Below, piece by piece: positions 12,994-63,593 of a stretch of 64,000 nucleotides of DNA. How positions within the stretch are numbered: the first letter of the stretch is position 1; every line of letters begins with the position of its first letter. The DNA lies in contig OZ024743.1 of assembly GCA_964016885.1 (NCBI GenBank), positions 167,152,001 through 167,216,000 of the forward strand, given 5' to 3'. A model generated the notes under the pieces. It worked only from the letters and a program-made list of their open reading frames with translations. It ran no database searches and had not been told where the DNA came from. The translations under genes were made by a program, and so were the position numbers. Source of the DNA: Eledone cirrhosa. Taxonomy: Eukaryota.

Positions 12994-13069
12994 ATATTTA
13001 TTTCATTATACATATTTCAGGGATACCAAATTAAATCATGGTATGCCTTCATCAGACAAAATACAATAT
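12994..13069 (-). ncRNA. Type-I hammerhead ribozyme (left-arm copy)
   Basis: Reverse complement of 14511-14586. Confidence 0.8.
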
Positions 13070-15312: not shown

Positions 15313-15441
15313 ATATTTGATTGCCTGTAGTTGTGGTGATAAGGTAAATACAATTGGTACAGAGTTAGACTATGAAAGATTAGGCCTGGCTAAAAATCAT
15401 GCTTACTCAGTGTTGGATGTTCAAGAGGTAGAAGGAAACAG
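15313..15441 (+). CDS. Calpain-15/SOL-like protease, exon with catalytic His
   Basis: tag|...|gtaagc, phase 2-2; YLIACSCG...GLAKNHAYSVLDVQEVEGN resembles CAPN15 FLMGASCG...GLRPRHAYSILDV (recalled sequence). Confidence 0.92.
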
Positions 15442-15711
15442 GTAAGCATTTCTTTCTGTTCTTTAACTGTTTTGATAGCAAACCACCTGGAACTGCACCT
15501 GGTTCTATTATATGTTGCTGTTTATTTTTAAATGTTTATATTTATCTGATAGCTTCACATATACCTCTCATGATTTTATGTAAGAATCATGTTCCAAACA
15601 CGAAGTTAATTTACGAAATCCCTTCAAATTCTTGGTTATTTTGAAAATCATTTAAAAATCATATGAAATATGGTAATGAAATGGTTAAATATTCATTTCT
15701 AAAATATACAC

Positions 15712-15900
15712 AATTGTTTCTACTTTTGGCACAAGGTCAGCAGTTACCCAGTATATTACTGGTACTTTATTTTATCGACCCCCGTAAGGATGAAAGGCAA
15801 AGTTAACCTCGGCGGGATTTAAACTCAGAACGTAAAGAGACGTAACTATGCTAGAAAGCATGGCGTCCAACCCTCTACCGATACTGCCAATTCACCGCCC
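15712..15900 (-). mobile_element. tRNA-derived SINE, family S2 (Meta-domain-like)
   Basis: Reverse complement matches 34698-34887. Confidence 0.8.
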
Positions 15901-16882
15901 TTCTAAAATATACACAATGTCTCATATTTAGAGAATGGATTAGTTAACTCATCTTATTTTATCTTCCCCAAATAGTGAAAAGTAAAATGAAGTGCCAATG
16001 GGATTTGAACTCAGAATATAACTAAATGTTGCAAAGCATTTTGTCTGTCATTCTACTGCTTCTGCTTCTTCTTATTCACCTACTTATTCCCGAGAGGGTC
16101 ATGGGGCAGAGTCCTCAAACACTCTTTCCAGCAAACCTGTCAGAAGCAACTGTCTCCAACTGATCTGGCTGGATCTCCAAGTGAGCCCAACAAAACTCAT
16201 GGATATTATCCAACTATCTTGCCCAGGGTCTACCCCTGGGTCTCCTACCGGTTGGTTTTTGCCTGTAAAATCCGTTCAGCAATTCTTTCCTGAGACATTC
16301 TAACCACATGCCCATGGTATTGGAGCTGTGATCTCTCAATTCTGCTCATTTACCAAATATATTGATTTGTTATTTATTTTACATGGACACAAGTCCTGAA
16401 TAAAGGAGATTGTGTTATCAGAAAGCTTTAATTTAGCAAGTGAAGTAACTTGACCCTTGCAAACCTTTAGCAAAGTCCACTCTATTGCAAGCATTGGGGC
16501 TAGGTTTTTGGTCTGACTGTAACTCTATATCATGAGGTGCTGCAGCAACCCATGTCTGTTTGTTTCTGTTCTATTTTCTTCTTGCTTGTCCTAGAGATCA
16601 GTGTAAAAAGTGTCATGGGCATTGCCCATCCTTCTCTGACTAAGCAATAAAAGAAAAAACTACACCGAAAACTGGATTTCAAATTACATCTATTTTATGA
16701 CATAAGCCCCTATATCTTCACATGTGAAATTTACGTTACTGGTATAATTTTCATCTATCAACTTGTGAATAAACCAATTAATTTTTTTTTTTTGTAATTG
16801 AGGTTATAGAAGTAAAGTTTAAAAAATATGAACAATTTTTATCTCATTAATTAATTTATTATTTGTTGACTTTTTTATGGAG

Positions 16883-17041
16883 ACTTCTCCAGATTCGTAA
16901 CCCCTGGAAATACCTCAGTTGGAATGGTAAATGGTCTAATGATTCTCCACTTTGGAAAACAATTAATTCAAACACAAAACATAAGTTACTTCAAAGATGT
17001 AGTGATGGAAAGTTCTGGATGTGTTTCAGTGACATCAGGAG
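16883..17041 (+). CDS. Calpain-15/SOL-like exon with catalytic Asn
   Basis: LLQIRNPWKYLSWNGKWSNDSPLW...DGKFWMCFSD; gag acceptor, gtatat donor, phase 2-2. Confidence 0.9.
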
Positions 17042-17442
17042 GTATATATCTTCTTTTAATTTTTTTTTTTGTTGGTATTAGTCATATCTGTTATAGTGAC
17101 TGTGGCTGGTGTTGTTGTGGTTACTGTTGGTGTCATTGTTGAGGTTTGTGTCAGTGTAAACATACATTTTTTGTTATCCAGAAATTTCAACAAATATACA
17201 AAGTCTATTGGTATTTGTGATGTTAGTGTCTGTTTGATCGATGTCTATAGTGTCAGTGTTGATGTGGTTGGTGATGGTGTCGATGTGGTTAGTGTCTGTA
17301 GTTGGTGTCAGTGTCTATGTGATTGATATTGGTGGTGTCTGTGGTTGATGTTGTTGGTCATTGTTTACCTTGTCTCCAAATTATTTCTAGATGGATACAC
17401 ATTTAACAGTTGTTATAAAATGACCTTCTTCCATTCTTTTCT

Positions 17443-20400
17443 ATCATCATCATCATCATACGTCCGCTTTTCCCTGCTTGCAAGCATGGGACGGGTCTTA
17501 TTCAGCACAGCATCTCTCCACTTGCCACGGTCCTTCGTCATCTCCACCATGAGCTTCAGCGATCTGAGGTCTGTTCTCACCACCTCCGCCCATGTTTTTT
17601 GTGGTCTACCTCTACCACGTCTTCCTTCAACTGGCATTTCCTGGCACTTCTTCACCCATCGGTCATCCTCCATGGGCATCACATGTCCATACCACCTCAG
17701 TCTCCTCTCCCGTACACTACATTCTATCCCTCTCAGACACAGTTTCTCTCTCAACACATTCATGCTGGGTTGTTCACGCACATTTACACTGCACATCCAA
17801 CGGAGCATGCTTGCCTCATTTCTCTCCAGCCGTCGCATATCCTCTGCAGTTGCTGCCCAAGTCTCACTACCATGCAGCATCGCGCTCCTCACACAGGCAT
17901 CATATAACCGACCTTTCGTACGCAGGGAGAAACCCTTCTTCATCAGCAGAGGAAGCAGCTCTCTAAACTTCTTCCAACCCGTCCTTATTATAGATACTAT
18001 GGCCTCGGAACACCCTCCTCCCATGCTAATCTGATCTGCTAGGTACCGGAAGCTATCCACCACTTCTATAGCACCCTCCTGCATTTGAAAAATGTGTCTA
18101 TCAGTGCGACTTCTACTGTCTAATTTCCCTGTACATCTACTGCATACATATTTTTCCCTACCTGTTAGTTTGCCTGCTATCCCACTACATCTCTTGTGTA
18201 CCCAGGATCTGCATTGTGTGCATTTTATACAATTTATGCCAGTTCCTTTTCTGCATATCGAACATGGCCATTTCCCTGATGGAATCAGAGTTTTGTCCTC
18301 TTTCCTACTTATAAACACTTTAGTCTTAGCTAGGTTCACTCTCAGTCCTCTTGCTTCCAACTGCTGTTTCCATAGCCAGAATTTATTCTCTAGCTCCTCT
18401 ACTGATTCTGCTATAAGAACCAGATGACAGATCGGGGTACCCTATCAAAGGCCTTCTCTGGGTCAACAAAGGCTAAGTATAGTGGCTTATTCTTCTCTAA
18501 GAACTTCTCTTGTAATTCTCTCACCAAGAAGAGGGCATCTGTTGTACTTTTCCCAGGCACAAAACCAAACTGCATCTCATCTCGTTTGACCCTTTCTCTA
18601 ATTAGTTGTGCTAATATCCTTTCTGCCACTTTCATAACCTGATCCATCAGTTTTATACCCCTATAATTGCTCCTCTCCAGAGCATCTCCTTTACCTTTGT
18701 AATAATTTATGAGAATACTGCTGCACCAGTCTTTGGGTATGACACCACCATATATAGCCTGATTGATGATGCGTGCAACCAGTTTAGTGCCTACGTCCCC
18801 TGATGCCTACAGTATCTCAGCAACTATCCCTGACGGTCCAGCAGCCTTTCAATTTTTCATTTCCTTAATTGTCTCTTGGACCCTATATTCATCAATCTCA
18901 ATAGTTGGTCCTTCTGTCGGATCTACTGAGGGTAATTTCTCTCTCTCCCCATTCATCACTTCTCCACATTCATCAGTCTCTCATAATGACATTTCCAGGC
19001 CTCCTTTTTCTGATCATTCGTGACACTAAGTACACCGGCATCATTCCGGACACATTTATCTCTAACAACATCCTGATTTGCCAATGTGGAACACCGCACG
19101 TCACTGATCTTCCCGTTGCAGAACATTGGCAAACCTCCTACTCTCAGCCTCCCTGCGTGCTAAGTACACCTGACGTCTAGCTTCTCTCTTAGCAGCTGTA
19201 TATCCTTCTCTACTCCCACCCTTTTTCCAAGCCTTTCATGCTAGTCTTTTGTCTCTAATGGCCCTATCTATTGTGCTGTCCACCACCAGGTCACTCTCTG
19301 TCTGGTTGGAGCTCTGCTCCAGCCACAAGATTCATCAGTAGCCTGCAGTAAGTTGTCACATAAGAAATTCCAGTTATTAATCTGTCATACGACTCTAAAT
19401 CGTCTTCTTTTTCGTCATACACATCTTGAAGGGCTTTCCTAAATTTGTATTTTAGTGACAGGTCTTTTAGCTTCCAGACCTTTCTTCTCCACACCTTCCT
19501 GTATGTCTCTTGCTTACTGAGATATCACTAACGACTAACCTATGCTGTGGGGTACATTCTTCCCCAGGGTATGCCTTGGTATTTGACACCATCTGCCTGT
19601 CCTGCTGCCTAACTAGTAAGAAGTCAATCTGGCTTATGTGCTCACCTGATTTGTAGGTTATTAGGTGGTTGGCAGGTTTCTAGAAGTTAGTGTTGCAAAT
19701 AGTCAGTGTACTTGCATCACAAAATACAAGAAGTCTCACTCCTTCTTCATTTCTTGAGCCGTAACCGTGCCCGCCATGTACCCCAGTGTAACCGTCCTGG
19801 AGCTGTCCAACATGACCATTGAAGTCCCCTGCTAGCATAACGATGTCTCCGTTCTCTGTCATTGCGGTTGTTTGTAAAAGTTGCTCGTAAAAGCAGTCTT
19901 TCTCATCTTTGCCTAGGCCTGCTTGGGGAGCATAGGCAGAGATGATTGTCAGTAGTCTCCTGCCTACAACTAATCTAAGTTTAATTATTCAATTACTAAC
20001 TCAAACTACCTCTATTGTCTTATTGATCCATCTCTCAGCCAGGAAAATGCCTACTCCCCCTAACCCATCATCCTTACCTACCCAGAATAGCTTATAGCTA
20101 AGACGCTTGCCTACGACTAGTCTCGCAGAGGCACCTCTCCATCTCACCTCTTGCACGCAGCACACATCCACATGCCTTCTCTCCAGCATCTCTGCTATTT
20201 CACCAGATCTACCTGTGAGAGTGCCAACATTAAGTGTTGCAACTCTGAGATGCGACGTCTTCATATTTTTGTTGTTCCTATATATTTGTTGCTGTGCTGA
20301 TAAGCGTTTTGGCATTGATACACTGGTTGGATGCCCTTCCTAACACCAGTGCCACTTTACAGCATGGACTGGGTGCTTTTATTTGTGCCACCAGCACTAG

Positions 20401-28487: not shown

Positions 28488-29724
28488 ATATATATATATT
28501 ACATATAATTAATATAGAGTAGATCGTTTTCAAATATAAAAACAGGAAAAGTGTAGGTGAAAAATATATATATATATAAAGAACACATGTTTAGAAAACG
28601 GCGAGCAGAATTTGAAAATCATTAGAACTTTGACTAAATAAAATAGTCTAATAATAGTGGGGCGTCTAAACCCACTGAACTGAAAAAGGTGGGCATCAGG
28701 ACTTCAGCTGCTAGTGCAATTTTCAATATATATATTAATAAGCAACTTGAGTGCTAATTATATGCTAATTAGTATGTCCATTTCAGAATAATACTAAGAA
28801 CAAATGGGTATATATATCCATCAAATACATGTTTCCTTGTGGCTGCTTGGTGAGGGTCCAATTAGATCCGAAAATTGATTAAAGATGTTTCATTTTGTCA
28901 ATTTACAGGAAAATTCATATTTTCTGCTATGTTTTTAGCAGGTGTAATGAATGGCTTGTTTGTTTGTTCATTTGTTGGGTGGTAGTATGAATTGCGAGAT
29001 GAAGTTGTCGAAGTAATTGAATAAGTGAGTAGTTTGTTGGTCGAGTAATGGCAAGTTAGTTGAGAGAAGTTTTGCCATGTTCATGTAAACAAGTAGTTGT
29101 ACTCACTTGTTGTGCTGTGAATTAACAAATGAACAAGACACCGCTAATTTAAATCTTTTTAATTGTAACACGATTTACTTTGAAATTATGTGCAGCAATG
29201 AACAACTGAAAAAGATGCAAATTATAGATGCAGTATGTTATGCAAGCAAAAGTAGTAATATTTGTTAACCTGTGTAGCAAACTCAGCTAATGCTGATTCC
29301 AGAAGGGCTGGCTAGTGAGTGTGTATGTCTACATTGCTATGTGGCCAAACAAACTAACTGTTGCAGAGTTGGAAGGCAGGCTGTATTTTGCTTAGTCGAA
29401 AAGCAGAATATCTCTTTGAGGGTCAAAATCTCTTGCATATTTTAAGTTGCCCATTAATATTAATCAGATGGCCTTTACAACTGTCCTCTTTTCAGACACT
29501 CAGGTGTCTGTAGCTTCCTATAATAGAACATTATCTAGGTTTTGGGCTCTGAGGTCAGTCTTTTGGTGGTTATTTGCGGCAGGCTAAGAAAAGCGCTATG
29601 AGAAAAATATGTTGAGATTTTTTTGTGACATGTTTACATGCCTACATATATTAGATATGTGTATGTATTTATACACATTGTTAAAATCTTGGTTGCACAC
29701 TTTGTATTTATACAGATATAACTT

Positions 29725-31605
29725 TTGGTCCTCTTCGCAATCCCCACACAAGCCAGGTTACTCACTCTCCAGTTGGTCCTCTTCGCAATCCCCACACATG
29801 CCAGGTTACCTCACTCTCCAGTTGGTCCTCTTCGCAATCCCCACACAAGCCAGGTTACTGACGACCCCAAGGAATGCGCAGAGCTCATTGCTGAATGCTA
29901 TGCAGGCATTTTCACTATTGAAGACCAGAGTGTACCATCTCCACCACCTATGACACCGGACTCTATTACAACCATGGAATTTACACCTGCAATGCTGCGA
30001 CGTCACCTAAAAAATAAACGCAACCATGCCTCTCCTGGTCTTGATGGTGTTACGTACCTGCTTCTTAAACGTGGTGGGTACTTCCTTCTACACCAGTTAT
30101 CACGCTTCTTCCAATTCTGTCTGAACAACAGTGCTACTCCAGAACAGTGGAAAACTGCCAGTGTCATTCCTCTGTTCAAAAAGGGTGACCGCACATCACC
30201 TGTGAACTATCGTCCAGTCAGTCTTACTAGTTGCATCGCCAAACTGATGGAATCCTGTGTCAGAGAAACACTTTGGAACTTCTGGAGCTCTCACAGTCTT
30301 ATCCGGCCCTCGCAATTTGGATTTATCCCCAACTCCAGCTGCTGTGATCAACTTATAGAGTTTCTTGAGGACATCACCCGGATCACTGATGGCGGCTCAT
30401 GGGTGGATGTTGTTTACCTTGACTTTGTGAAGGCCTTCAATTCTGTGCCACACAAAAGGCTTATGGCAAAACTCTCTGCAATGGGTGTGAAGGATGATCT
30501 TTTTAACTGGTTGAAGTCCTTCATTCTCAGTCGAAGAGAGGTAGTCACGGTTCTGGGACAGCATTCCTCACCATATGAGATGTCATCTGGTGTACCACAG
30601 GGATCTGTTCTTGGCCCCCTTTTGTTTGTGGCATATATTAATGACATAGATGCCAACTTAAGGAATGCCACAGTACTAAAGTACGCAGACGACATCAAGC
30701 TGTACCTTGAGATAAAAAGGACAGATCCTGAACACTATAGATCTTGCTTGCAGTCTGACCTGGACACAATGCAACAGTGGATCTCAGACTGGCAACTCAA
30801 GCTAGCTGTGGACAAGTGCACCACCATGCATTTTGGGAGTAAAAACCCAGCGTCCACATACTCCCTCCACAGCACTAATATCAAGAAGTCTTCCTGTGAA
30901 CGTGACCTGGGCATTACGGTCAGCAGCGATTTGCGTTGGACGAGGCACGTCTCTAAAATTGTCAAGAGGGCTGAGGGTGTCTTAGCATCACTCAGCAAGA
31001 CCTTTGTCAGCTGCTCTCCAGATATCTATTTAAGGCTGTATACAGCTATGGTGCGACCACATTTAGAATTTGCATCACCAGTCTGGAACCCCTATCTTGC
31101 TCAGGACATTGACCGCCTGGAAACTGTTCAGAGACGTGCAACCAAGCGAATACCCTCCATCAGGCATCTACCATACTCTGAGCGCCTTGCTTCCCTGGGC
31201 ATGGATTCATTGAAGCTCCGACGCCTGGCAACTGACTTGGTAAACACCCACAAAATTGTTAACCATGTTGCCAACAACAACCCTGAGTACCTTTTCGATT
31301 TCCATGTGTCTAACACACGTGGACATGCCCACAAAGTAAGAAAACACCACAGTTCCCATGACTTTCGGAAACATTTTTTCGCGCTCAGAGTTGCTGAAGC
31401 ATGGAACAAACTACCTTCATCAGTTGTTAGCTGTCGAGACACTGCATCCTTTAAGGCCTCCATGCTTCCCGAGATCCGCTAACAGAACAGCTAACACATA
31501 CACACATGTACTTCCCTGACATTTGTGTATTATTCTATATACTACATTGACGAGTTGTAGTGCACCTGAGCACTTTACACAATAATTTCATTATTATTAT
31601 TTATT
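29725..31605 (+). mobile_element. 5'-truncated CR1-group LINE with open RT frame
   Basis: ORF 29725-31482: NYRPVSLTS, YLDFVKAFNSVPH, SGVPQGSVLGPLLF, YADD, ERDLGI, RPHLEFASPVWNP, TRGH, WNKLP; (ATT)n tail; no APE domain. Confidence 0.93.
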
Positions 31606-48589: not shown

Positions 48590-51500
48590 ATATTGTTATA
48601 TTTGGGGAGGGTCATATTTGCGTAATATTGCCAGAATTAATAACAGAACACACTCACTGTTTGGTTGGTTTTCGCTTCTCGCTGTCTTTTATATATATAT
48701 ATCTGCGATCTAACTTACTCGGTCCTCAATGTTGCCATTGACTGACCGGCGGTCAAAAATAATACAGATACAATATAGACAAACACATATATATATAGTT
48801 TACATAAATCTTTCGTTGCACATCTGCAACATCGTCAGTGGTGTTATATTCATTGTTCCTCCTGTTGTGTTGTATGTCTACGCCATTTTTTTTTTTTTGT
48901 TCAGTCTGTCTATATATTTATTTATTTATTTGCTTGTTTGTTTATCTTATTTTATTTTGTCTTCTTTGCGCATGCGTTTGCGTGTGTGTATAGTGTTATG
49001 TGTGATGTGTGACTAGTGTGTATAGTGTTGTGTCTGCTGGGTGACTAGTGTGTGTTTATGTGCTTGTGTATGTATTTATTTATCTTATTTTATTTAATTT
49101 AATTTACTTATTTATTTATACTTCTCTTAGGTCAGTGTTGTTTGTTTGGGTGTTGTTGTTGTTCCACTCATTCTTTCTGTTTAGCTTTGGTCTTCTAATT
49201 TCTATTTCACTGGCCTCTCTGATTTGCCTATCTGCTGGGTCATTCCTATGTTTAGATATTATTCTAATTTCTATGTTGTCTATGTTACCGTCATGATGTT
49301 GTCTAGCATGTTCGTATAGTACTGACCCGTTTTTTCGTCCTTTTAGTTCCCCCCAGTGTTGGTCTATCCTTTCACCTATGCTACGAGCTGTCTCACCTAT
49401 GTATGTTGTTGTCGTGTTTCTGCAAGTACCCTCTGTACATCTTATGCTATAGACTACGTTTCTAGTTTTACAGTTTATCCGGGGGTTCACCTTACATATG
49501 ATACATTTCCTATTGGTACAGTGGGTTTTCTTAAAAGGGTAGGTTTTGCTGATCAGGGATTTTATGGTGGTTCCTGGCTTTTCTACCACCTTTATTTTTA
49601 AGTGGGTCTTTCTCAGGGCCTTTCTACACTGGTTAGCTAATTTCCCTCCAGGGGTGGCGTCCACAAACATGACACTCTGATATCTCTGGTTGTCGTACCA
49701 TGATGTGGCCTTCCCTATCTTATGTCTAGCCCTATCTAAGCTATTCCATGATTTGCTCCTGTATAGTGGGCAAATTCCTTTCATGTCCAGTTCTATGAGG
49801 GTCTTATACTTTTCCATGGCTCCTTCGTATACTCTGACTCTGTCTCTTTGGTTGTAGCCAGAGAACTGCATGCGGTTGATGAAGTGTTGGATGTGTCCTT
49901 CCATTTCTGTTGGGTCGCACATGCTGGACACATTCTTCATCACTCGTACCAAATCTGCGATCAGAATATTAAACTTAGCACTACTGGACATTGCTGAGTT
50001 TTTGAGTATCAGGTATTTGGAGGCCATGGGTTTAGCATAGTGTGAGTGGAGAATTTGGGCTCTCTCGTCTATAGTGTTAATCCAGAGTTCTGTGTCTAAT
50101 ACAGGTAGTCTATTGTTAGGGTGTTTGGAAGGGAAGTCTATAGTTACAGTTATACTCTGGTGTATGGAATTAGCTATCTGCTGGATGCTTTCCATCGTGC
50201 TACGTTCTAAATCAAACTTGTTAGTGCTCTCTAGTGGGGGTGTTCTTATAACTATATTGATATCGTCTACATAACGAGAGTACATGATGAGGTCTATGGA
50301 GCTTTCATTAAGGAGATCTTTAAGTCTCCTTTCCCACCATACCATGAAAAGGTTGGCAACATCGCCAGCTATGCTGACGCCGATGGCTGCTCCCTCATTT
50401 TGGGTGTAGATTTTCTCATTGAACTTAAATATGTGGCCCTTTAGGGTAGTTTTGATACTAGCCCCTATTGCATGTGCGACCATTTTTCTTACCTGATCAG
50501 TGTTTTGGGGGGTCCGTATAGCTTTGGTCCACCCAATCCACCTTCCTATGGGAGTCTTTTTAGCCATTGAGGTTATGGTGGGGGGTCTACCTCTTATAGG
50601 TCTACTAGGGCAGAAACATCTAAGGTCATGGCTGTCTAGGTAGTCAGTGTCGTAGGTAAGTCTAAGTAGGAGGCCCAGTTCGTCTGTGTCGACGTCGCAG
50701 AACTCCACCTCACTCTCAATGATCATCTCCACACATCTTTTCACAGCAAAATCAATGTTAATGGATGGGTACAGTGACACCACATCCATGCTGCCTATTA
50801 TGCAGTTGGATAGGCTCCTGTTTTTGTTGCACTCACTGATTCTGCTGAGAAGGTCCTCTGTACTTTCACATACATCTGGGGACATCTTGATTATGGGGCG
50901 TATAACCATTGAGAGGAAGTAGGAGATCCTGTAGTTGCTAGCTATATTAGCTCCGCATACAGGTCTTGTTGGTGGTCCTGTTGTCGGGTCGTCGACTGTC
51001 TTGTGGTCTTTGCGGAGCCCATACAAGGGTGGTATGCCATTGTTAGACGCCTGGAAGTTGTTGGCAGTGCGTCTGCTTGGCTTTAGGATGTCAGTCCACA
51101 TCATCATGTGAGCGTTGAGGATTTTTTCTCTCCCATCGTGTGTTAGTTGTGCAACTTCGCTCGTGTTGGTGATGTGGGGTTGCATTGCCTCGATGTAGTT
51201 CGGCATGCTATCTATTGACATCCTACCAGACTTATCTGTGGGTAGACACACTACCTCACCATCCCTTGTGCGCTGCTTGAGGCTAACCAAGCCTTCTACA
51301 GGTTTTATCCCAAGTTGTTGGGCCTCTGGTCTGCTCTGTCTCATAGTGTACCTGTCTATTACTTGTCTAATCTTATTTCTAGCTATGGTGAACTGTGCCT
51401 CCGTCTCGTCATCTATTTGTTGTGGTATGCAAACTCTTTTATTAAAGGGTAACCTCGTAGGATAGATATTACCCATCTTATATGTTTTGTCAGCTGGGTT

Positions 51501-53847
51501 GAAAAATAGTTTCTCTAAGGGGTTGTCGTTATTTCTATCGTCATAGTTGTGTGTGTTGCTATTATTATTATCATGGTGGTTGTTGTTGTTTCTATCATTA
51601 GCATTAATATTATTATTGTTATGATTGCTAGATGTATTGTTGTTTACTTCACCGTTATTGTTGTTGTTGTTACTGCTATTTCTACCATTGTGGTTGTTAC
51701 TATTATTATGTTTCTTGTTTTTGTTGATGTTGCTACATGTACTATTTCCATTATTACCACTGTGGTTATTGTTGTTGTTGTTGTTCGTATTGTTACCGTT
51801 ATTACTACTGTGGTCACTGTTGCTGTGTCTGTGGTTAACGTTTCTATTATTATTATTATTGTGGTTGTTGTTGTTCTGTCTATCGCTAGTATTATTACCA
51901 TTATCACTATTTCTCACTTTCCTGCCATTGTTATGGTTATGGCTGTTATTTCTATACCCAGAGTTATTGTTTATATTACTACTACCGTTATTATTGTTGT
52001 TGTTGTTTACCTTTGCATTCCAACGTATTTTTGTGAAACACTTTTCCAGTTCCGTTTTGCATTCCATAGGGTTAATCTTTTTGTAGATGGCAAATTTTGG
52101 TGGTAACTTTAGGATTTGTTGTTCTTGTTCACTGATTAAAGTGTTCCCATAGATATTTACTGTGTGGTCATTGGTAAATTCTTCCGGTAGTTTTACATCA
52201 CTCATACGGATGTTGTCGATGTTATCTGGGTATTTTTGAGAATATTCGATTTTCCTTTCTTGTAGTTTTTTCTTATTCATCCATTCTAATTTCTTCTTGA
52301 AATGCCTACAGCATTCGTTTTGAGCATATTTCGTTTCGCGTCGGATGACGCTCATGAAGTCATCTCTCTCGTTTGCTGTGATGAGATTTCGGATTTCCTT
52401 ACCGTTGATGCGTTTTTGTCTGTAGAGTGCGTTGACTTTTGTGTATGTTGTTCTTTTCATATTAACTGTTATTGTGTGTTTTAGCCGTTCAGCTTGTGTT
52501 TTGTTCAATAATAAATTATTTACTTGTTTTGATATGTTTGTTGTGTATGTTTTGGAGGAAACACAGTGTTTTAAGAAGCGGATTTGTTCTGTTGTTATTG
52601 TAGTTTTTATATAACAGAAAACAGTGTCTTTCAATAACCTTTCAGCTTGGCACAAGCTAATGCCATAGCGGCGATGAATTAGTTTTGCGAGGTTTTTTAT
52701 ATGAAATCGTGTGTCGAAACAGATATTGTTATATTTGGGGAGGGTCATATTTGCGTAATATTGCCAGAATTAATAACAGAACACACTCACTGTTTGGTTG
52801 GTTTTCGCTTCTCGCTGTCTTTTATATATATATATCTGCGATCTAACTTACTCGGTCCTCAATGTTGCCATTGACTGACCGGCGGTCAAAAATAATACAG
52901 ATACAATATAGACAAACACATATATATATAGTTTACATAAATCTTTCGTTGCACATCTGCAACATCGTCAGTGGTGTTATATTCATTGTTCCTCCTGTTG
53001 TGTTGTATGTCTACGCCATTTTTTTTTTTTGTTCAGTCTGTCTATATATTTATTTATTTATTTGCTTGTTTGTTTATCTTATTTTATTTTGTCTTCTTTG
53101 CGCATGCGTTTGCGTGTGTGTATAGTGTTATGTGTGATGTGTGACTAGTGTGTATAGTGTTGTGTCTGCTGGGTGACTAGTGTGTGTTTATGTGCTTGTG
53201 TATGTATTTATTTATCTTATTTTATTTAATTTAATTTACTTATTTATTTATACTTCTCTTAGGTCAGTGTTGTTTGTTTGGGTGTTGTTGTTGTTCCACT
53301 CATTCTTTCTGTTTAGCTTTGGTCTTCTAATTTCTATTTCACTGGCCTCTCTGATTTGCCTATCTGCTGGGTCATTCCTATGTTTAGATATTATTCTAAT
53401 TTCTATGTTGTCTATGTTACCGTCATGATGTTGTCTAGCATGTTCGTATAGTACTGACCCGTTTTTTCGTCCTTTTAGTTCCCCCCAGTGTTGGTCTATC
53501 CTTTCACCTATGCTACGAGCTGTCTCACCTATGTATGTTGTTGTCGTGTTTCTGCAAGTACCCTCTGTACATCTTATGCTATAGACTACGTTTCTAGTTT
53601 TACAGTTTATCCGGGGGTTCACCTTACATATGATACATTTCCTATTGGTACAGTGGGTTTTCTTAAAAGGGTAGGTTTTGCTGATCAGGGATTTTATGGT
53701 GGTTCCTGGCTTTTCTACCACCTTTATTTTTAAGTGGGTCTTTCTCAGGGCCTTTCTACACTGGTTAGCTAATTTCCCTCCAGGGGTGGCGTCCACAAAC
53801 ATGACACTCTGATATCTCTGGTTGTCGTACCATGATGTGGCCTTCCC
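48590..53847 (-). mobile_element. PLE copy A: full ORF, 3' pseudo-LTR plus tail, and upstream partial-tandem unit
   Basis: The 3' segment (ORF end + UTR + ORF start) recurs as a direct repeat at about 48590-49715 and 52723-53847. Confidence 0.96.
49116..52748 (-). CDS. PLE polyprotein: N-terminal region, Asn-rich insert, reverse transcriptase, Cys-rich linker, GIY-YIG endonuclease (1210 aa, intact)
   Basis: GSMDVVSLYPSI, QNEGAAIGVSIAGDVANLFM, RYVDD, LPVLD; HCTNRKCIIC..NC; VVYSIRC...YIGET..R..QH...REA..I...PKLN. Confidence 0.96.
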   Translation of the reverse strand: MTLPKYNNICFDTRFHIKNLAKLIHRRYGISLCQAERLLKDTVFCYIKTTITTEQIRFLKHCVSSKTYTTNISKQVNNLLLNKTQAERLKHTITVNMKRTTYTKVNALYRQKRINGKEIRNLITANERDDFMSVIRRETKYAQNECCRHFKKKLEWMNKKKLQERKIEYSQKYPDNIDNIRMSDVKLPEEFTNDHTVNIYGNTLISEQEQQILKLPPKFAIYKKINPMECKTELEKCFTKIRWNAKVNNNNNNNGSSNINNNSGYRNNSHNHNNGRKVRNSDNGNNTSDRQNNNNHNNNNNRNVNHRHSNSDHSSNNGNNTNNNNNNNHSGNNGNSTCSNINKNKKHNNSNNHNGRNSSNNNNNNGEVNNNTSSNHNNNNINANDRNNNNHHDNNNSNTHNYDDRNNDNPLEKLFFNPADKTYKMGNIYPTRLPFNKRVCIPQQIDDETEAQFTIARNKIRQVIDRYTMRQSRPEAQQLGIKPVEGLVSLKQRTRDGEVVCLPTDKSGRMSIDSMPNYIEAMQPHITNTSEVAQLTHDGREKILNAHMMMWTDILKPSRRTANNFQASNNGIPPLYGLRKDHKTVDDPTTGPPTRPVCGANIASNYRISYFLSMVIRPIIKMSPDVCESTEDLLSRISECNKNRSLSNCIIGSMDVVSLYPSINIDFAVKRCVEMIIESEVEFCDVDTDELGLLLRLTYDTDYLDSHDLRCFCPSRPIRGRPPTITSMAKKTPIGRWIGWTKAIRTPQNTDQVRKMVAHAIGASIKTTLKGHIFKFNEKIYTQNEGAAIGVSIAGDVANLFMVWWERRLKDLLNESSIDLIMYSRYVDDINIVIRTPPLESTNKFDLERSTMESIQQIANSIHQSITVTIDFPSKHPNNRLPVLDTELWINTIDERAQILHSHYAKPMASKYLILKNSAMSSSAKFNILIADLVRVMKNVSSMCDPTEMEGHIQHFINRMQFSGYNQRDRVRVYEGAMEKYKTLIELDMKGICPLYRSKSWNSLDRARHKIGKATSWYDNQRYQSVMFVDATPGGKLANQCRKALRKTHLKIKVVEKPGTTIKSLISKTYPFKKTHCTNRKCIICKVNPRINCKTRNVVYSIRCTEGTCRNTTTTYIGETARSIGERIDQHWGELKGRKNGSVLYEHARQHHDGNIDNIEIRIISKHRNDPADRQIREASEIEIRRPKLNRKNEWNNNNTQTNNTDLREV

Positions 53848-56800
53848 ACAACAAACATATCAAAACAAGTAAATAATTTATTATTGAACAAAACACAAGC
53901 TGAACGGCTAAAACACACAATAACAGTTAATATGAAAAGAACAACATACACAAAAGTCAACGCACTCTACAGACAAAAACGCATCAACGGTAAGGAAATC
54001 CGAAATCTCATCACAGCAAACGAGAGAGATGACTTCATGAGCGTCATCCGACGCGAAACGAAATATGCTCAAAACGAATGCTGTAGGCATTTCAAGAAGA
54101 AATTAGAATGGATGAATAAGAAAAAACTACAAGAAAGGAAAATCGAATATTCTCAAAAATACCCAGATAACATCGACAACATCCGTATGAGTGATGTAAA
54201 ACTACCGGAAGAATTTACCAATGACCACACAGTAAATATCTATGGGAACACTTTAATCAGTGAACAAGAACAACAAATCCTAAAGTTACCACCAAAATTT
54301 GCCATCTACAAAAAGATTAACCCTATGGAATGCAAAACGGAACTGGAAAAGTGTTTCACAAAAATACGTTGGAATGCAAAGGTAAACAACAACAACAATA
54401 ATAACGGTAGTAGTAATATAAACAATAACTCTGGGTATAGAAATAACAGCCATAACCATAACAATGGCAGGAAAGTGAGAAATAGTGATAATGGTAATAA
54501 TACTAGCGATAGACAGAACAACAACAACCACAATAATAATAATAATAGAAACGTTAACCACAGACACAGCAACAGTGACCACAGTAGTAATAACGGTAAC
54601 AATACGAACAACAACAACAACAATAACCACAGTGGTAATAATGGAAATAGTACATGTAGCAACATCAACAAAAACAAGAAACATAATAATAGTAACAACC
54701 ACAATGGTAGAAATAGCAGTAACAACAACAACAATAACGGTGAAGTAAACAACAATACATCTAGCAATCATAACAATAATAATATTAATGCTAATGATAG
54801 AAACAACAACAACCACCATGATAATAATAATAACAACACACACAACTATGACGATAGAAATAACGACAACCCCTTAGAGAAACTATTTTTCAACCCAGCT
54901 GACAAAACATATAAGATGGGTAATATCTATCCTACGAGGTTACCCTTTAATAAAAGAGTTTGCATACCACAACAAATAGATGACGAGACGGAGGCACAGT
55001 TCACCATAGCTAGAAATAAGATTAGACAAGTAGTAGACAGGTACACTATGAGACAGAGCAGACCAGAGGCCCAACAACTTGGGATAAAACCTGTAGAAGG
55101 CTTGGTTAGCCTCAAGCAGCGCACAAGGGATGGTGAGGTAGTGTGTCTACCCACAGATAAGTCTGGTAGGATGTCAATAGATAGCATGCCGAACTACATC
55201 GAGGCAATGCAACCCCACATCACCAACACGAGCGAAGTTGCACAACTAACACACGATGGGAGAGAAAAAATCCTCAACGCTCACATGATGATGTGGACTG
55301 ACATCCTAAAGCCAAGCAGATGCACTGCCAACAACTTCCAGGCGTCTAACAATGGCATACCACCCTTGTATGGGCTCCGCAAAGACCACAAGACAGTCGA
55401 CGACCCGACAACAGGACCACCAACAAGACCTGTATGCGGAGCTAATATAGCTAGCAACTACAGGATCTCCTACTTCCTCTCAATGGTTATACGCCCCATA
55501 ATCAAGATGTCCCCAGATGTATGTGAAAGTACAGAGGACCTTCTCAGCAGAATCAGTGAGTGCAACAAAAACAGGAGCCTATCCAACTGCATAATAGGCA
55601 GCATGGATGTGGTGTCACTGTACCCATCCATTAACATTGATTTTGCTGTGAAAAGATGTGTGGAGATGATCATTGAGAGTGAGGTGGAGTTCTGCGACGT
55701 CGACACAGACGAACTGGGCCTCCTACTTAGACTTACCTACGACACTGACTACCTAGACAGCCATGACCTTAGATGTTTCTGCCCTAGTAGACCTATAAGA
55801 GGTAGACCCCCCACCATAACCTCAATGGCTAAAAAGACTCCCATAGGAAGGTGGATTGGGTGGACCAAAGCTATACGGACCCCCCAAAACACTGATCAGG
55901 TAAGAAAAATGGTCGCACATGCAATAGGGGCTAGTATCAAAACTACCCTAAAGGGCCACATATTTAAGTTCAATGAGAAAATCTACACCCAAAATGAGGG
56001 AGCAGCCATCGGCGTCAGCATAGCTGGCGATGTTGCCAACCTTTTCATGGTATGGTGGGAAAGGAGACTTAAAGATCTCCTTAATGAAAGCTCCATAGAC
56101 CTCATCATGTACTCTCGTTATGTAGACGATATCAATATAGTTATAAGAACACCCCCACTAGAGAGCACTAACAAGTTTGATTTAGAACGTAGCACGATGG
56201 AAAGCATCCAGCAGATAGCTAATTCCATACACCAGAGTATAACTGTAACTATAGACTTCCCTTCCAAACACCCTAACAATAGACTACCTGTATTAGACAC
56301 AGAACTCTGGATTAACACTATAGACGAGAGAGCCCAAATTCTCCACTCACACTATGCTAAACCCATGGCCTCCAAATACCTGATACTCAAAAACTCAGCA
56401 ATGTCCAGTAGTGCTAAGTTTAATATTCTGATCGCAGATTTGGTACGAGTGATGAAGAATGTGTCCAGCATGTGCGACCCAACAGAAATGGAAGGACACA
56501 TCCAACACTTCATCAACCGCATGCAGTTCTCTGGCTACAACCAAAGAGACAGAGTCAGAGTATACGAAGGAGCCATGGAAAAGTATAAGACCCTCATAGA
56601 ACTGGACATGAAAGGAATTTGCCCACTATACAGGAGCAAATCATGGAATAGCTTAGATAGGGCTAGACATAAGATAGGGAAGGCCACATCATGGTACGAC
56701 AACCAGAGATATCAGAGTGTCATGTTTGTGGACGCCACCCCTGGAGGGAAATTAGCTAACCAGTGTAGAAAGGCCCTGAGAAAGACCCACTTAAAAATAA

Positions 56801-57880
56801 AGGTGGTAGAAAAGCCAGGAACCACCATAAAATCCCTGATCAGCAAAACCTACCCTTTTAAGAAAACCCACTGTACCAATAGGAAATGTATCATATGTAA
56901 GGTGAACCCCCGGATAAACTGTAAAACTAGAAACGTAGTCTATAGCATAAGATGTACAGAGGGTACTTGCAGAAACACGACAACAACATACATAGGTGTA
57001 CTTGCAGAAACACGACAACAACATACATAGGTGAGACAGCTCGTAGCATAGGTGAAAGGATAGACCAACACTGGGGGGAACTAAAAGGACGAAAAAACGG
57101 GTCAGTACTATACGAACATGCTAGACAACATCATGACGGTAACATAGACAACATAGAAATTAGAATAATATCTAAACATAGGAATGACCCAGCAGATAGG
57201 CAAATCAGAGAGGCCAGTGAAATAGAAATTAGAAGACCAAAGCTAAACAGAAAGAATGAGTGGAACAACAACAACACCCAAACAAACAACACTGACCTAA
57301 GAGAAGTATAAATAAATAAGTAAATTAAATTAAATAAAATAAGATAAATAAATACATACACAAGCACATAAACACACACTAGTCACCCAGCAGACACAAC
57401 ACTATACACACTAGTCACACATCACACATAACACTATACACACACGCAAACGCATGCGCAAAGAAGACAAAATAAAATAAGATAAACAAACAAGCAAATA
57501 AATAAATAAATATATAGACAGACTGAACAAAAAAAAAAAAATGGCGTAGACATACAACACAACAGGAGGAACAATGAATATAACACCACTGACGATGTTG
57601 CAGATGTGCAACGAAAGATTTATGTAAACTATATATATATGTGTTTGTCTATATTGTATCTGTATTATTTTTGACCGCCGGTCAGTCAATGGCAAGATTG
57701 AGGACCGAGTAAGTTAGATCGCAGATATATATATATAAAAGACAGCGAGAAGCGAAAACCAACCAAACAGTGAGTGTGTTCTGTTATTAATTCTGGCAAT
57801 ATTACGCAAATATGACCCTCCCCAAATATAACAATATCTGTTTCGACACACGATTTCATATAAAAAACCTCGCAAAACTA
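53847..57880 (+). mobile_element. PLE copy B: inverted, 5'-truncated, frameshifted in the endonuclease
   Basis: ORFs 53884-57030 and 56952-57311 nearly identical to copy A; 35-bp tandem duplication 56963-56997/56998-57032; pLTR 57312-57811; 69-nt ORF-start tail. Confidence 0.96.
57576..57634 (+). ncRNA. Minimal type-I hammerhead motif in the PLE pLTR (other cores: 48805-48838 -, 52938-52971 -, 61006-61039 -, 62664-62697 +)
   Basis: CTGACGA-T-GTTGCA(GATG)TGCAAC-GAAA-GATT-TA; 6-bp helix II; 1-bp helix III within wobble-palindromic AGATTT; helix I weak. Confidence 0.68.
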
Positions 57881-57996
57881 TATATCTATATATATCTATA
57901 TATATCTATATATATATATCTATATATATATATCTATATATCTATCTATATATATATATATATATATATATATCTATATATATATCTATATATCTA

Positions 57997-58049
<53 letters not shown>

Positions 58050-58126
58050 ATATATATATATCTATATATATATATATATATATCTATATATATATATATA
58101 TATATATCTATATATATATATATATA

Positions 58127-58161
<35 letters not shown>

Positions 58162-58188
58162 ATATCTATATATATATATATCTATATA

Positions 58189-58223
<35 letters not shown>

Positions 58224-58328
58224 ATATATATATATATATATATATCTATATATATATATATCTATATATATATATATCTATATATATATATATATATATA
58301 TCTCTATATATATATATATATATATATA

Positions 58329-58361
<33 letters not shown>

Positions 58362-58504
58362 ATATATATATATCTATATATATATATATATATATCTATA
58401 TATATATATCTATATATATATATCTATATATCTATATATATATATATATCTATATATATATCTATATCTATATATATATATATATATATCTATATATATA
58501 TATA

Positions 58505-58547
<43 letters not shown>

Positions 58548-58638
58548 ATATATATATATATATATATATCTATATATATATATATATATATATCTATATA
58601 TATATATATATATATCTATATATATATATATATATATA

Positions 58639-58677
<39 letters not shown>

Positions 58678-59122
58678 ATATCTATATATATATATATATA
58701 TATCTATATATATCTATATATATATCTATATATATATATATCTATATATATCTATATATATATCTATATATATATATATCTATATATATCTATATCTATA
58801 TATATATATATCTATATATATCTATATCTATATATATATATATCTATATATATCTATATATATATCTATATATATATATATATATATATATATCTATATA
58901 TATATCTATATCTATATATATATATATATATATATATCTATATATATATATATATATATAGATATATATATATCTATATATATATATATATCTATATATA
59001 TATCTATATATATATATCTATATATATCTATATATATCTATATATATATATATATATATATATATCTATATATATATATCTATATATATATATATATATC
59101 TATATATATATATATATATATA

Positions 59123-59157
<35 letters not shown>

Positions 59158-59552
59158 ATATATATATATCTATATATATATATATATATATCTATATATA
59201 TATATCTATATCTATATATATATATCTATATATATATATATATATCTATATATATATATCTATATATATATCTATATCTATATATATATATCTATATATA
59301 TATATCTATATATATATCTATATCTATATATATATATCTATATATATATATCTATATATATATCTATATCTATATATATATATCTATATATATATATATA
59401 TATATATCTATATATATATCTATATCTATATATATATATCTATATATATATATATATATATATATCTATATATATATATCTATATATATATCTATATCTA
59501 TATATATATATATATATCTATATATATATATATCTATATCTATATCTATATA

Positions 59553-59597
<45 letters not shown>

Positions 59598-59772
59598 ATA
59601 TATATATCTATATATATATCTATCTATATATATATATATATATATCTATATCTATATATATATATCTATATATATATCTATATATATATATATATATATC
59701 TATATCTATATATATATATCTATATATATATCTATATATATATATATATATATATCTATATATATATCTATA

Positions 59773-59813
<41 letters not shown>

Positions 59814-59864
59814 ATATATATATATATATATATATCTATATCTATATATATATATATATCTATA

Positions 59865-59903
<39 letters not shown>

Positions 59904-59942
59904 ATATCTATATATATATATATATCTATATATATATCTATA

Positions 59943-59987
<45 letters not shown>

Positions 59988-60207
59988 ATATATATATATA
60001 TATATCTATATATATATCTATATCTATATATCTATATATATATATCTATATATATATCTATATATATCTATCTATATATATATATCTATATATATATATC
60101 TATATATATATCTATATATATATATCTATATATATATCTATATATATATATCTATATATATATATCTATATCTATATATATAGATATATATATATCTATA
60201 TATATAA
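57881..60207. repeat. About 2.3-kb imperfect (TA)n/TATC tract
   Basis: Directly visible. Confidence 0.95.
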
Positions 60208-60763
60208 GTAGATAAATCTACCAAGAGTTTACGGTAGTGTCCAATCCGTATGAAGAACTCAATGTATTCCGGATATCATGGAAAGAAGAGATGTAATGAA
60301 AAATCACTTTCGGTGAAAGATAAACGGTATACAGAGTCAAGATAAAATATTAAACAAATAATGAATAAACAATGAGACAGTTCCCTATATTAAACAAAAA
60401 AAGTTCATTATTTAACGATCGTTTCTAGGATATATATGTGTTAGAATTGGCATGCATATTCAACAGATCTATGTACAAAATTATACAAAATTATACAAAC
60501 TATCAAGATTAAATATACATACCAACACATATATACGCCGTCTTCAGGATTATTTCTGAAGACGGCGTATATATGTGTTGGTATGTATATTTAATCTTGA
60601 TAGTTTGTATAATTTTGTATAATTTTGTACATAGATCTGTTGAATATGCATGCCAATTCTAACACATATATATCCTAGAAACGATCGTTAAATAATGAAC
60701 TTTTTTTGTTTAATATAGGGAACTGTCTCATTGTTTATTCATTATTTGTTTAATATTTTATCT
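60208..60763. mobile_element. Non-coding PLE-like element: 208-bp inverted repeat (60340-60547/60556-60763, 8-nt spacer) plus about 130-bp extension, TA flanks
   Basis: No mismatch seen between arms; hammerhead motif begins at the centre. Confidence 0.85.
60549..60696 (+). ncRNA. Type-I hammerhead-like motif with about 115-nt helix II domain
   Basis: Helix I ATTATTT/AAATAAT; CTGAAGA 60556-60562; stem GTATATATGTGTTGG/CTAACACATATATAT; GAAA 60678-60681; palindromic helix III ACGATCGT; GUU triplet, predicted cut after 60689; extra nucleotides at helix II base. Confidence 0.7.
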
Positions 60764-60781
60764 ATATATATATATATCTAT

Positions 60782-62970
60782 ATATTGTTATATTTGGGGA
60801 GGGTCATATTTGCGTAATATTGCCAGAATTAATAACAGAACACACTCACTGTTTGGTTGGTTTTCGCTTCTCGCTGTCTTTTATATATACATATCTGCGA
60901 TCTAACTTACTCGGTCCTCAATGTTGCCATTGACTGACCGGCGGTCAAAAATAATACAGATACAATATAGACACAAACACATATATATAGTTTACATAAT
61001 TTACATAAATCTTTCGTTGCACATCTGCAACATCGTCAGTGGTGTTATATTCATTGTTCCTCCCCCTAAAGGGCCACATATTTAAGTTCAATGAGAAAAT
61101 CTACACCCAAAATGAGGGAGCACCCATCGGCGTCAGCATAGCTGGTGATGTTGCCAACCTTTTCATGGTATGGTGGGAAAGGAGACTTAAAGATCTCCTT
61201 AATGAGAGCTCCATAGACCTCATCATGTACTCTCGTTATGTAGACGATATCAATATAGTTATAAGAACACCCCCACTAGAGAGCACTAACAAGTTTGATT
61301 TAGAACGTAGCACGATGGAAAGCATCCAGCAGATAGCTAATTCCATACACCAGAGTATAACTGTAACTATAGACTTCCCTTCCAAACACCCTAACAATAG
61401 ACTACCTGTATTAGACACAGAACTCTGGATTAACACTATAGACGAGAGAGCCCAAATTCTCCACTCACACTATGCTAAACCCATGGCCTCCAAATACCTG
61501 ATACTCAAAAACTCAGCAATGTCCAGTAGTGCTAAGTTTAATATTCTGATCGCAGATTTGGTACGAGTGATGAAGAATGTGTCCAGCATGTGCGACCCAA
61601 CAGAAATGGAAGGACACATCCAACACTTCATCAACCGCATGCAGTTCTCTGGCTACAACCAAAGAGACAGAGTCAGAGTATACGAAGGAGCCATGGAAAA
61701 GTATAAGACCCTCATAGAACTGGACATGAAAGGAATTTGCCCACTATACAGGAGCAAATCATGGAATAGCTTAGATAGGGCTAGACATAAGATAGGGAAG
61801 GCCACATCATGGTACGACAACCAGAGATATCAGAGTGTCATGTTTGTGGACGCCACCCCTGGAGGGAAATTAGCTAACCAGTGTAGAAAGGCCCTGAGAA
61901 AGACCCACTTAAAAATAAAGGTGGTAGAAAAGCCAGGAACCACCATAAAATCCCTGATCAGCAAAACCTACCCTTTTAAGAAAACCCACTGTACCAATAG
62001 GAAATGTATCATATGTAAGGTGAACCCCCGGATAAGCTGTAAAACTAGAAACGTAGTCTATAGCATAAGATGTACAGAGGGTACTTGCAGAAACATGACA
62101 ACAACATACATAGGTGAGACAGCTCGTAGCATAGGTGAAAGGATAGACCAACACTGGGGGGAACTAAAAGGACGAAAAAACGGGTCAGTACTATACGAAC
62201 ATGCTAGACAACAACATGACGGTAACATAGACAACATAGAAATTAGAATAATATCTAAACATAGGAATGACCCAGCAGATAGGCAAATCAGAGAGGCCAG
62301 TGAAATAGAAATTAGAAGACCAAAGCTAAACAGAAAGAATGAGTGGAACAACAACAACACCCAAACAAACAACACTGACCTAAGAGAAGTATAAATAAGT
62401 AAATAAAATTAAATAAAATAAGATAAATAAATACATACACAAGCACATAAACACTCACTAGTCACCCAGCAGACACAACACTATACACACTAGTCACACA
62501 TCACACATAACACTATACACACACGCAAACGCATGCGCAAAGAAGACAAAATAAAATAAGATAAACAAACAAGCAAATAAATAAATAAATATATAGACAG
62601 ACTGAACAAAAAAAAATGGCGTAGACATACAACACAACAGGAGGAACAATGAATATAACACCACTGACGATGTTGCAGATGTGCAACGAAAGATTTATGT
62701 AAACTATATATATGTGTTTGTGTCTATATTGTATCTGTATTATTTTTGACCGCCGGTCAGTCAATGGCAACATTGAGGACCGAGTAAGTTAGATCGCAGA
62801 TATATATATATAAAAGACAGCGAGAAGCGAAAACCAACCAAACAGTGAGTGTGTTCTGTTATTAATTCTGGCAATATTACGCAAATATGACCCTCCCCAA
62901 ATATAACAATATCTGTTTCGACACACGATTTCATATAAAAAACCTCGCAAAACTAATTCATCGCCGCTAT
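60782..62970 (+). mobile_element. PLE copy C: inverted partial pLTR (60782-61063) joined to 5'-truncated RT-EN ORF (61064-62394), pLTR and 84-nt tail
   Basis: ORF 61039-62394 almost identical to the C-terminal part of copy A; both ends abut (TA)n. Confidence 0.95.
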
Positions 62971-63129
62971 ATCTCTATATATATATATATATCTATATAT
63001 ATATATATATATATCTATATATATATATATATATATATCTATATATATATATATATATATCTATATATATATATATATATATCTATATATATATATATAT
63101 ATATATCTATATATATATATATATATATA

Positions 63130-63192
<63 letters not shown>

Positions 63193-63278
63193 ATATATAT
63201 ATATATATATCTATATATATATATATCTATATCTATATATATATATATATATATATATATCTATATATATATATATAT
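62971..63278. repeat. Imperfect (TA)n tract
   Basis: Directly visible. Confidence 0.95.
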
Positions 63279-63593
63279 TACTCACATGTCGCTTCTTTTA
63301 AACACTCAGATAAACGAACATCAACGGCCCTCGCAAGTAAGGTATGGGATCTCAAGGATAGTAATATCCCGTACTCTATTGATTGGTCTATATTAGACCA
63401 TTCGAGGGAGTACCAAAGGGGCACAAAGAATTGTTCTTTGTGTACCACAGAAAAGTATAGGATTTTGCTAAACTTGAGAGACACTTCCGCTTGCCTTAAC
63501 TCTAAGACTGAGATCTTCAGATGCTGTCCTCATCTGAAATCGCATCTGATCTGTAACTGGATTGACACTCCTACGATAAATCAACCGCCTTGA
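63279..63593 (+). pseudogene. C-terminal half of a GIY-YIG endonuclease from another PLE family (Nematis-like), 5'-truncated
   Basis: Hand translation (not in track): [61 protein letters not shown]...LNSKTEIFRCCPH...PP*. Confidence 0.75.

Follow-up and report, generated by a model that had tools for sequence, protein, structure and literature searches.

Layout of three back-to-back insertions

The window analysed here is a 64,000-nt stretch of the Eledone cirrhosa genome (assembly GCA_964016885.1, contig OZ024743.1, positions 167,152,001-167,216,000, forward strand), and coordinates are given as window positions. It holds three insertions of Penelope-like elements (PLEs), each made of two copies in opposite orientation and bordered by TA repeats: composite A/B, composite C with its short inverted partner Cinv, and a small palindrome. 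A first-pass annotation had reported these back-to-back structures, and self-comparison together with direct alignments recovered all three in place. On sequence grounds, A/B and C belong to a young Neptune-like PLE, hereafter family U, and the palindrome to a different, Hydra-like PLE, family D. U designates a 4133-bp unit running from 52722 down to 48590, site 0 is its last base, and the tail comprises the bases that follow site 0 in a tandem of U. The features are as follows.

44784..48589, no strand: A/B left flank, a (TA)n array interrupted by C (253 C vs 76 G on the plus strand)
48590..52722, minus: arm A, full 4133-bp family U unit, 3' end at site 0 fused to TA (alignment)
49116..52748, minus: intact 1210-aa open reading frame (ORF) in A (motifs; RVT_1 E 5e-5, below the Pfam cut-off; 128 homologues)
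52723..53847, minus: upstream 5'-truncated partial unit of A, its upstream pseudo-long terminal repeat (pseudo-LTR) (self-comparison, alignment)
53847, no strand: A/B inversion junction, 1-nt overlap (C) (alignment)
53847..57880, plus: arm B, unit positions 178-4133 and a 43-nt tail (alignment)
57589..57616, plus: hammerhead-like core of the family U pseudo-LTR, CUGANGA - stem II - GAAA (by eye; stem II folds)
57838..57880, plus: tail of B, +1 to +43 beyond site 0 (alignment)
57881..60207, no strand: (TA)n array with the C polarity of the left flank (149 C vs 2 G)
60208..60547, minus: family D tail arm, ending at D343 (sequence comparison)
60548, plus: extra G before the family D start site (reference base C), a putative RNA-cap copy (sequence comparison)
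60549..60763, plus: family D site-0 arm, from the start site through the hammerhead-like motif to D209-211 (sequence comparison)
60556-60700, plus: type I hammerhead-like motif within the family D site-0 arm (by eye)
60764..60781, no strand: short TA spacer separating two independent insertions (sequence)
60782..61063, minus: arm Cinv, unit positions 3861-4133, 3' end at site 0, haplotype of C (alignment)
61064..62970, plus: arm C, unit positions 2277-4133 and a 58-nt tail (alignment)
62971..63278, no strand: (TA)n array, right flank of C (sequence)

Arm A as a whole spans 48590-53847 on the minus strand, that is, the full unit and the upstream partial unit; the latter is identical to the full unit except for one A in a homopolymer, and contains the putative start site at 53039. 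A and B meet at 53847 in a single C common to both arms, and C and Cinv are joined bluntly at 61063/61064, as annotated. The paired copies had been called divergent, which is true of their orientation but not of their sequences: direct alignment gives 4 differences in 3956 sites between A and B, plus a 35-bp duplication in B that shifts its endonuclease frame near 56963, and 1 difference in 273 between C and Cinv, plus a 9-bp indel (a count of 5/257 for the latter pair is inflated by indel placement and was not used). A and C differ at 11 of 1849 sites, and Cinv has the haplotype of C.

Each copy had also been credited with its own 3' end fused to TA. All six outer ends do adjoin TA repeat, but they are not equivalent: A and Cinv end at site 0, B at +43 and C at +58, and the palindrome arms end at D209-211 (site-0 arm) and D343 (tail arm). 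The palindrome arms are not random truncations either, since both begin at a recurrent start site. As for the inverted partner of about 4 kb, described as unusually long, A/B has indeed the longest shorter arm among 67 pairs (3956 nt), but it marks the end of a continuous range in which 3371 nt comes next.

Long palindromes are hard to assemble, and neither 53847 nor 61063/61064 was bridged by any contig among those listed from public runs, which are assembled contigs and not raw reads; this outcome carries no weight for or against the junctions. None of the public runs listed as containing the sequence was an RNA run. A fold-back read or an assembly artefact is nevertheless barely credible here. 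The arms differ in sequence and in 3' end; the TA flanks of A/B have the same C polarity and thus form one array, not a mirror image, and flanks are collinear in 9 of 10 informative loci. Moreover, inversion joints like these are present in public-run contigs at breakpoints elsewhere, such as 52791 to 57770 and 53449 to 57773, with seven listed joints ending at the family D start site 60549.

Complementary 3' ends of the paired arms

In nearly every pair, one arm ends at the fixed site 0 and the other at a downstream tail site, located +43 to +59 nt past site 0 or, in family D, at +134. Loci were sampled by pattern searches of the genome. Sample 1 consisted of the first 100 of the 5112 exact matches that one 26-mer has genome-wide, a figure that also shows family U to be large; these formed 70 clusters, all of them examined. 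Sample 2 was anchored on tail ends and comprised 77 loci after removal of two tandem duplicates (L169, L170) and a hand-picked exception (L141), while sample 3 was anchored on the start site (17 of 24 extra-G matches) and the family D sample on the centre of 20 palindromes.

Sample 1 contained 44 double-ended insertions: 41 combined site 0 with a tail end, one was tail/tail, one had other ends (+25/-24) and one extended beyond the examined stretch; none was 0/0. All 12 double-ended insertions among the 17 loci of sample 3 were mixed. Together, these two samples, which were unselected by end type, give 53 mixed pairs out of 55 resolved and no 0/0 pair; when only the 54 two-class pairs are considered, 53 are mixed (p 3e-15 against the most favourable independence null). 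In sample 2, the partner ended at site 0 in 56 loci and at a tail site in none, the others being one end at -33, 14 single arms and 6 unresolved loci. Within 12 kb of 100 consecutive site-0 ends there were 10 mixed pairs, one tail/tail pair and no back-to-back 0/0 pair. Family D behaves in the same way, with 19 of 20 palindromes pairing about D208-209 with D343 and the 20th cut short on both sides, and so does a third, U-related family met by chance, with 6 mixed pairs and no tail/tail pair among 20 tail ends. Each outer end shows 2-4 nt of TA microhomology, and either end type can also be met as a single arm that has TA on its 5' side. Such near-strict complementarity is shown here in two clades and appears to be new with respect to the literature searched.

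The tail of the third family ends about 57 nt beyond the same site 0 (L002, L019, L084, L088, L129, L131, L157, L176 and others).

Adjacent 26-mer matches within 10 kb (first 100 of 5112) were back-to-back in 25 cases and face-to-face in 4, therefore the layout exceeds chance. Since TA arrays gather several insertions, three in this window alone, one could suppose that two elements inserted independently in opposite orientation into one (TA)n array and had their 5' ends fused by deletion. In that case 0/0 pairs would be expected to be the commonest, given a ratio of about 3:1 between site-0 and tail ends, and none was seen; the 25 to 4 excess and the rare variants common to both arms, described below, also speak against it. 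We regard independent insertion as a very remote explanation, one largely refuted by the pairing rule.

The alternative raised in the first-pass annotation, that most copies would lack an inverted partner, does not apply to sample 1, in which 44 of 70 insertions have one that carries a 3' end of its own; of the rest, 19 consist of one arm with a TA-rich 5' end and 7 are other or unresolved. In many seeming singles, an inverted piece of tail sequence is present that is just 11-66 nt long. Genome-wide matches to exact end patterns, unequal in tolerance, numbered 10615 for site 0, 1736 for +58 and 1456 for +43, and double-ended insertions probably make up 30-60% when all ages are counted.

Whole insertions, double-ended or single, were later amplified as tandem repeats with periods of about 270-310 bp, 620 bp, 3.6-4.7 kb and 9.5 kb (G000:C1:42149464-42150339; C1:34853592-34854874; L168-L170; L239; L046/L047). 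Head-to-tail arrays of two to three full units (L033-L034, L136, L094) point to multi-unit templates or repeated template jumps.

Origin of the two arms

We consider it likely that both cut strands of the target prime their own cDNA, one at site 0 and the other at the tail site, and that the two cDNAs are end-joined. The first-pass annotation had already proposed that both ends of a (TA)n cut prime cDNAs that are then joined, and this part remains the best fit; what has to be added is that priming is asymmetric. A protein dimer would cut both (TA)n strands, each of the two 3'-OH ends would prime at its own site on the element RNA, and each cDNA would extend until falling off or reaching the capped 5' end. 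The cDNA 3' ends would then anneal through 0-5 nt and each be extended on the other, completing both second strands. Failure or loss of one cDNA would leave an ordinary single arm whose 5' end abuts TA.

Of 67 pairs, 31 have a site-0 arm that extends further 5', 22 a tail arm that does, and 14 two arms that stop within 30 nt of each other. Furthermore, 18 of 97 mixed pairs include a tail-only stub without any sequence in common with its partner. Because either arm can be the longer one and such stubs exist, the arms often cannot be copies of each other; in A/B, for instance, B carries 43 nt absent from A's end, yet A is longer. Arm lengths are uncorrelated overall (rho 0.18, p 0.15), and stops within 30 nt are in excess (14 observed vs 3.7 expected; outside the start-site zone 7 vs 2.4, p 0.005). 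In 39 of 42 pairs the median other copy is more distant than the partner arm, and both arms carry the same rare variant in 39 instances, against 0.8 in 60 permutations; judged by both measures, the two arms share one source lineage. Of 18 family D palindromes (L213 and L222 left out), 15 have identical arms, an identity to which later inter-arm conversion could add.

Some observations on individual stubs and loci may be recorded here. Tail-only stubs primed at +58 often end at about +35 to +45, in the vicinity of the +43 site (L036, L041, L042, L044, L062, L064, L067, L105, L107, L118, L139). A supposed lack of very short site-0 stubs was weakened as a regularity by a 16-nt site-0 stub in the third family (L117). 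In L080 (G000:C1:66520681-66528177) both outer arms stop exactly at U2004 and enclose a second inverted pair (U3131-3904 / U3131-4232). L049 may hold a cross-family partner: the 5' end of its family U site-0 arm adjoins, in inverted orientation, part of a related PLE of just 67% identity.

The 5' stops of family U arms cluster at U3804-3840. Where the base preceding U3816, a position that falls at 53039 and 48907 in the window, departs from the reference C, it is G in 24, T in 9 and A in 1 of 34 cases, and 15 of the 17 checked G copies at U3816 are true 5' ends. Family D arms stop at one A just before the hammerhead-like core, often with a preceding G (60548 in the window), and 15 of the first 100 family D matches pair as perfect palindromes with a zero-spacer AATT centre, as would be expected if two cDNAs ended at the start site and paired through their two terminal bases. 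Copying of an RNA cap is known to leave an untemplated G at a fixed 5' end. The extra G at the fixed 5' stop therefore points to a capped sense RNA as the probable template. In L089 (family U) and L230 (family D) the extra G occurs on both arms, one base apart, a spacing too close for a hairpin copy.

At the junctions, 26 of 69 were resolved without insert; 22 of these have an overlap of at least 1 nt and 17 of at least 2 nt, whereas chance would give 41% and 14%, respectively. Other junctions contain brief repeats of local sequence or segments from other parts of the element (e.g., L057, L113, L137, L166). These features may be the trace of end-joining between two single-stranded 3' ends. The junction classification covered 94 junctions, leaving out L047, L169 and L170 (duplicates), L033 and L071; 23 of the 94 received no class by script and were resolved by hand.

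Two other routes to inverted arms have to be weighed against these data. A cDNA primed at the tail site might fold back at its 3' end and copy itself, after which the endonuclease would cut one arm at site 0 and join it to the other target side, with central deletions, at that point or afterwards, leaving the arms unequal. This also predicts mixed pairing and accords with the rare variants common to both arms, with the excess of equal 5' stops and with some centres that read as small hairpins; besides, Craig et al. (2021) suggest an endonuclease-mediated resolution for the tail. We nonetheless find it unlikely, given that the site-0 arm is longer in 31 of 67 pairs, that 18 of 97 pairs have no shared sequence, and that lone site-0 ends, with TA microhomology like that of primed ends, occur in 19 of 70 clusters. 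The double extra G of L089 and L230 and the zero-spacer AATT centres also oppose it, and the added deletion step would be required for most pairs. Self-priming by antisense transcripts, building the head-to-head repeat before integration, was put forward by Arkhipova et al. 2013 (PMC3846280) for head-to-head repeats and junction palindromes, and junction palindromes are present here. The extra G, which points to capped sense RNA, the nesting of arms without fixed direction and the tail-only stubs make this route quite improbable for the Eledone elements.

If both cut strands prime, the two cDNAs may copy one RNA molecule or two RNAs from the same source held in different registers. We lean slightly towards one RNA in an asymmetric dimer, because the asymmetry is strict, some tail arms are tail-only stubs, and equal stops exceed chance beyond the start-site zone too. 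A fuller scheme, which we offer tentatively and at somewhat less than even chances, is asymmetric twin priming: one dimer would hold a single capped RNA, with a fixed site for each strand, both cDNAs would be copied from that same RNA, and their joining would replace second-strand synthesis, from Neptune-like to Hydra-like elements. If true, the inverted pseudo-LTR, the tail and the mini-palindromes would be outputs of one reaction.

Several points weigh against priming from both strands, or against its generality. Each step of the scheme is read back from finished insertions. The counts were hand-curated, samples 1 and 2 come from one contig (C1, 10-162 Mb), and an anchor present in both arms somewhat over-samples double-ended insertions; because site-0 ends (10615) far outnumber tail ends (1736 and 1456), the double-ended share of older subfamilies may be nearer 30%. 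Two tail/tail pairs exist, L046, a near-duplicate of the mixed L047, and L141, picked as an exception; L099, L156 and also L088 have other ends, and the flanks of L053 are of opposite polarity. Copy variants or inserts left 43 of 69 junctions without exact resolution, some start-site junctions can be read as hairpins with a 3-nt loop, and the variants shared by the arms fit fold-back copying and later arm-to-arm conversion equally well. If a single RNA is copied twice, strand displacement or host RNase H would be required. Finally, for the Anolis Poseidon protein (PAc) no difference in start site was observed between top and bottom strand (Frangieh et al. 2024, PMC11167929), and this lack of a strand difference neither shows nor excludes pairing within one event.

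Families, known systems and significance

The 1210-aa ORF of family U encodes, in this order, an N-terminal domain, an Asn-rich insert, a reverse transcriptase (RT; DKSG, YVDD), a CX4CxxC linker and C-terminal GIY-YIG-type motifs. One ORF thus combines an RT with a C-terminal GIY-YIG endonuclease (YVDD; YSIRC...YIGET), as in endonuclease-containing (EN+) PLEs, and the partial tandem pseudo-LTRs, tail and inverted 5' partner of this group are also present. D828, D829, Y1100 and Y1116 are invariant in 48 homologues. The Neptune-like label follows the motifs defined by Craig et al. 2021 (PMC8557442): the linker CTNRKCIIC, which fits their CX2-5CxxC pattern between RT and endonuclease, lies at residue 1077, with C1082 and C1085 invariant, and the CCHH pattern is represented by two Cys inside the GIY-YIG core and a downstream His. 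The closest named protein match, 69% identical, is from an octopus. No Pfam family matched the whole ORF, parts of which gave sub-threshold RVT_1 (E 5e-5) and no GIY-YIG match, and no close relative was found among solved structures (best E 0.057). The Asn-rich insert, of about 150 aa, lies in frame between the N-terminal domain and the RT at 51519-52106 (minus) and 54390-54870 (plus); rotifer PLEs have similar inserts at other positions (PMC3846280).

For Hydra elements, Craig et al. (2021) give a RWK-like motif, DKT, a CxCX5C linker, CxxC and CxH C-terminal motifs and no CCHH, and the 807-830-aa frame of family D (L232/L234) has RWR, SDKTG, CNCRNKANC, CRLC and CNH. Its size departs from the source's limit of less than about 3 kb, as hammerhead motif repeats lie 6788 nt (L234) and 7168 nt (L233) apart; the limit is worded "generally" and inserts could lengthen these two copies. 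Hammerhead-like CUGANGA and GAAA cores were seen by eye in both families, and Rfam gave no hammerhead match, only spurious microRNA matches on the palindrome. The elements are new members of known clades.

Directly after the last TA array, 63279-63560 (plus) is a C-terminal endonuclease fragment of another Hydra-like PLE (CSLC, CCPH ending), unrelated to family U by BLASTP, and about 1.2 kb past the right end of the window lies a further family D mini-palindrome (L183, G000:C4:167217247-167217584). Elsewhere in the window, 396-18441, 29722-31482 and 11015-12112 hold what we take, from their motifs, to be decayed RTE-like and CR1/L2-like long interspersed nuclear element (LINE) frames and a Tc1/mariner-like transposase frame.

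In LINE-1 twin priming, a second cDNA is started on the element RNA from the other target strand, and the two are joined head-to-head through microhomology; the second primer acts at a variable internal site upstream of the stop of the first cDNA, so that the arms do not overlap. Second-strand priming and a head-to-head microhomology join are likenesses between LINE-1 and the proposed mechanism. Flanks collinear in 9/10 and microhomology in 17/26 may fit a single event primed at both outer ends, in a TA repeat that would mask target-site duplications and empty sites. The differences are the fixed 3'-end sites and arms that can overlap for kilobases, up to 3956 nt; only the 18 tail-only stubs fit the non-overlapping pattern.

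The layout itself, as the first-pass annotation stated, was already known in PLEs. Craig et al. 2021 (PMC8557442) describe an inverted 5'-truncated partner, a tail at one end and (TA)n targets, calling the mechanism undefined, and Arkhipova et al. 2013 (PMC3846280) a tail on one inverted pseudo-LTR and Asn-rich inserts, with antisense self-priming as their proposal. The Eledone elements share with canonical EN+ PLEs the partial-tandem pseudo-LTRs, the inverted 5'-truncated copy beside the 5' end, the (TA)n targets, the Asn-rich inserts (PMC8557442, PMC3846280) and a tail of 30-40 bp, placed at one end or on one inverted pseudo-LTR. Those accounts treat the tail as "optional" and invoke endonuclease resolution for it and antisense self-priming for the inversion, whereas here the tail is on one arm and site 0 on the other in two clades, the arms are not nested, and an extra G occurs at a fixed 5' stop. 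A full-text literature search, with most subscription papers outside its scope, found no statement of the pairing rule or of PLE twin priming, and the portions available of a retrozyme preprint and of an Octopus vulgaris repeat annotation contain nothing on pairing; both rule and asymmetric twin priming therefore appear to be new.

The biochemistry of PAc comes closest. This protein cleaves and extends both strands in vitro, two adjacent internal RNA start sites bound the tail, the target is AT-rich and a dimer is predicted (Frangieh et al. 2024, PMC11167929), data that the twin-priming reading would match. The PAc start sites lie near the ORF start, and in family U site 0 is 26 nt into the ORF. 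PAc belongs to another clade, and the available text of that paper does not link both-strand priming to inverted partners.

How tandem and inverted insertions and the tail are formed is presented as an open question by Craig et al. 2021 (PMC8557442). The pairing rule, seen in about 130 insertions of two distant clades, ties this question of PLE layout to published biochemistry with two strands and two sites, and can be tested by the existing in-vitro assay. For curators, it means that the "tail at the other end" and the "inverted partner" are one feature of varying length, and the 5' stops allow an RNA start site to be mapped from DNA alone. Priming from both strands would likely explain a PLE layout that has long been puzzling.

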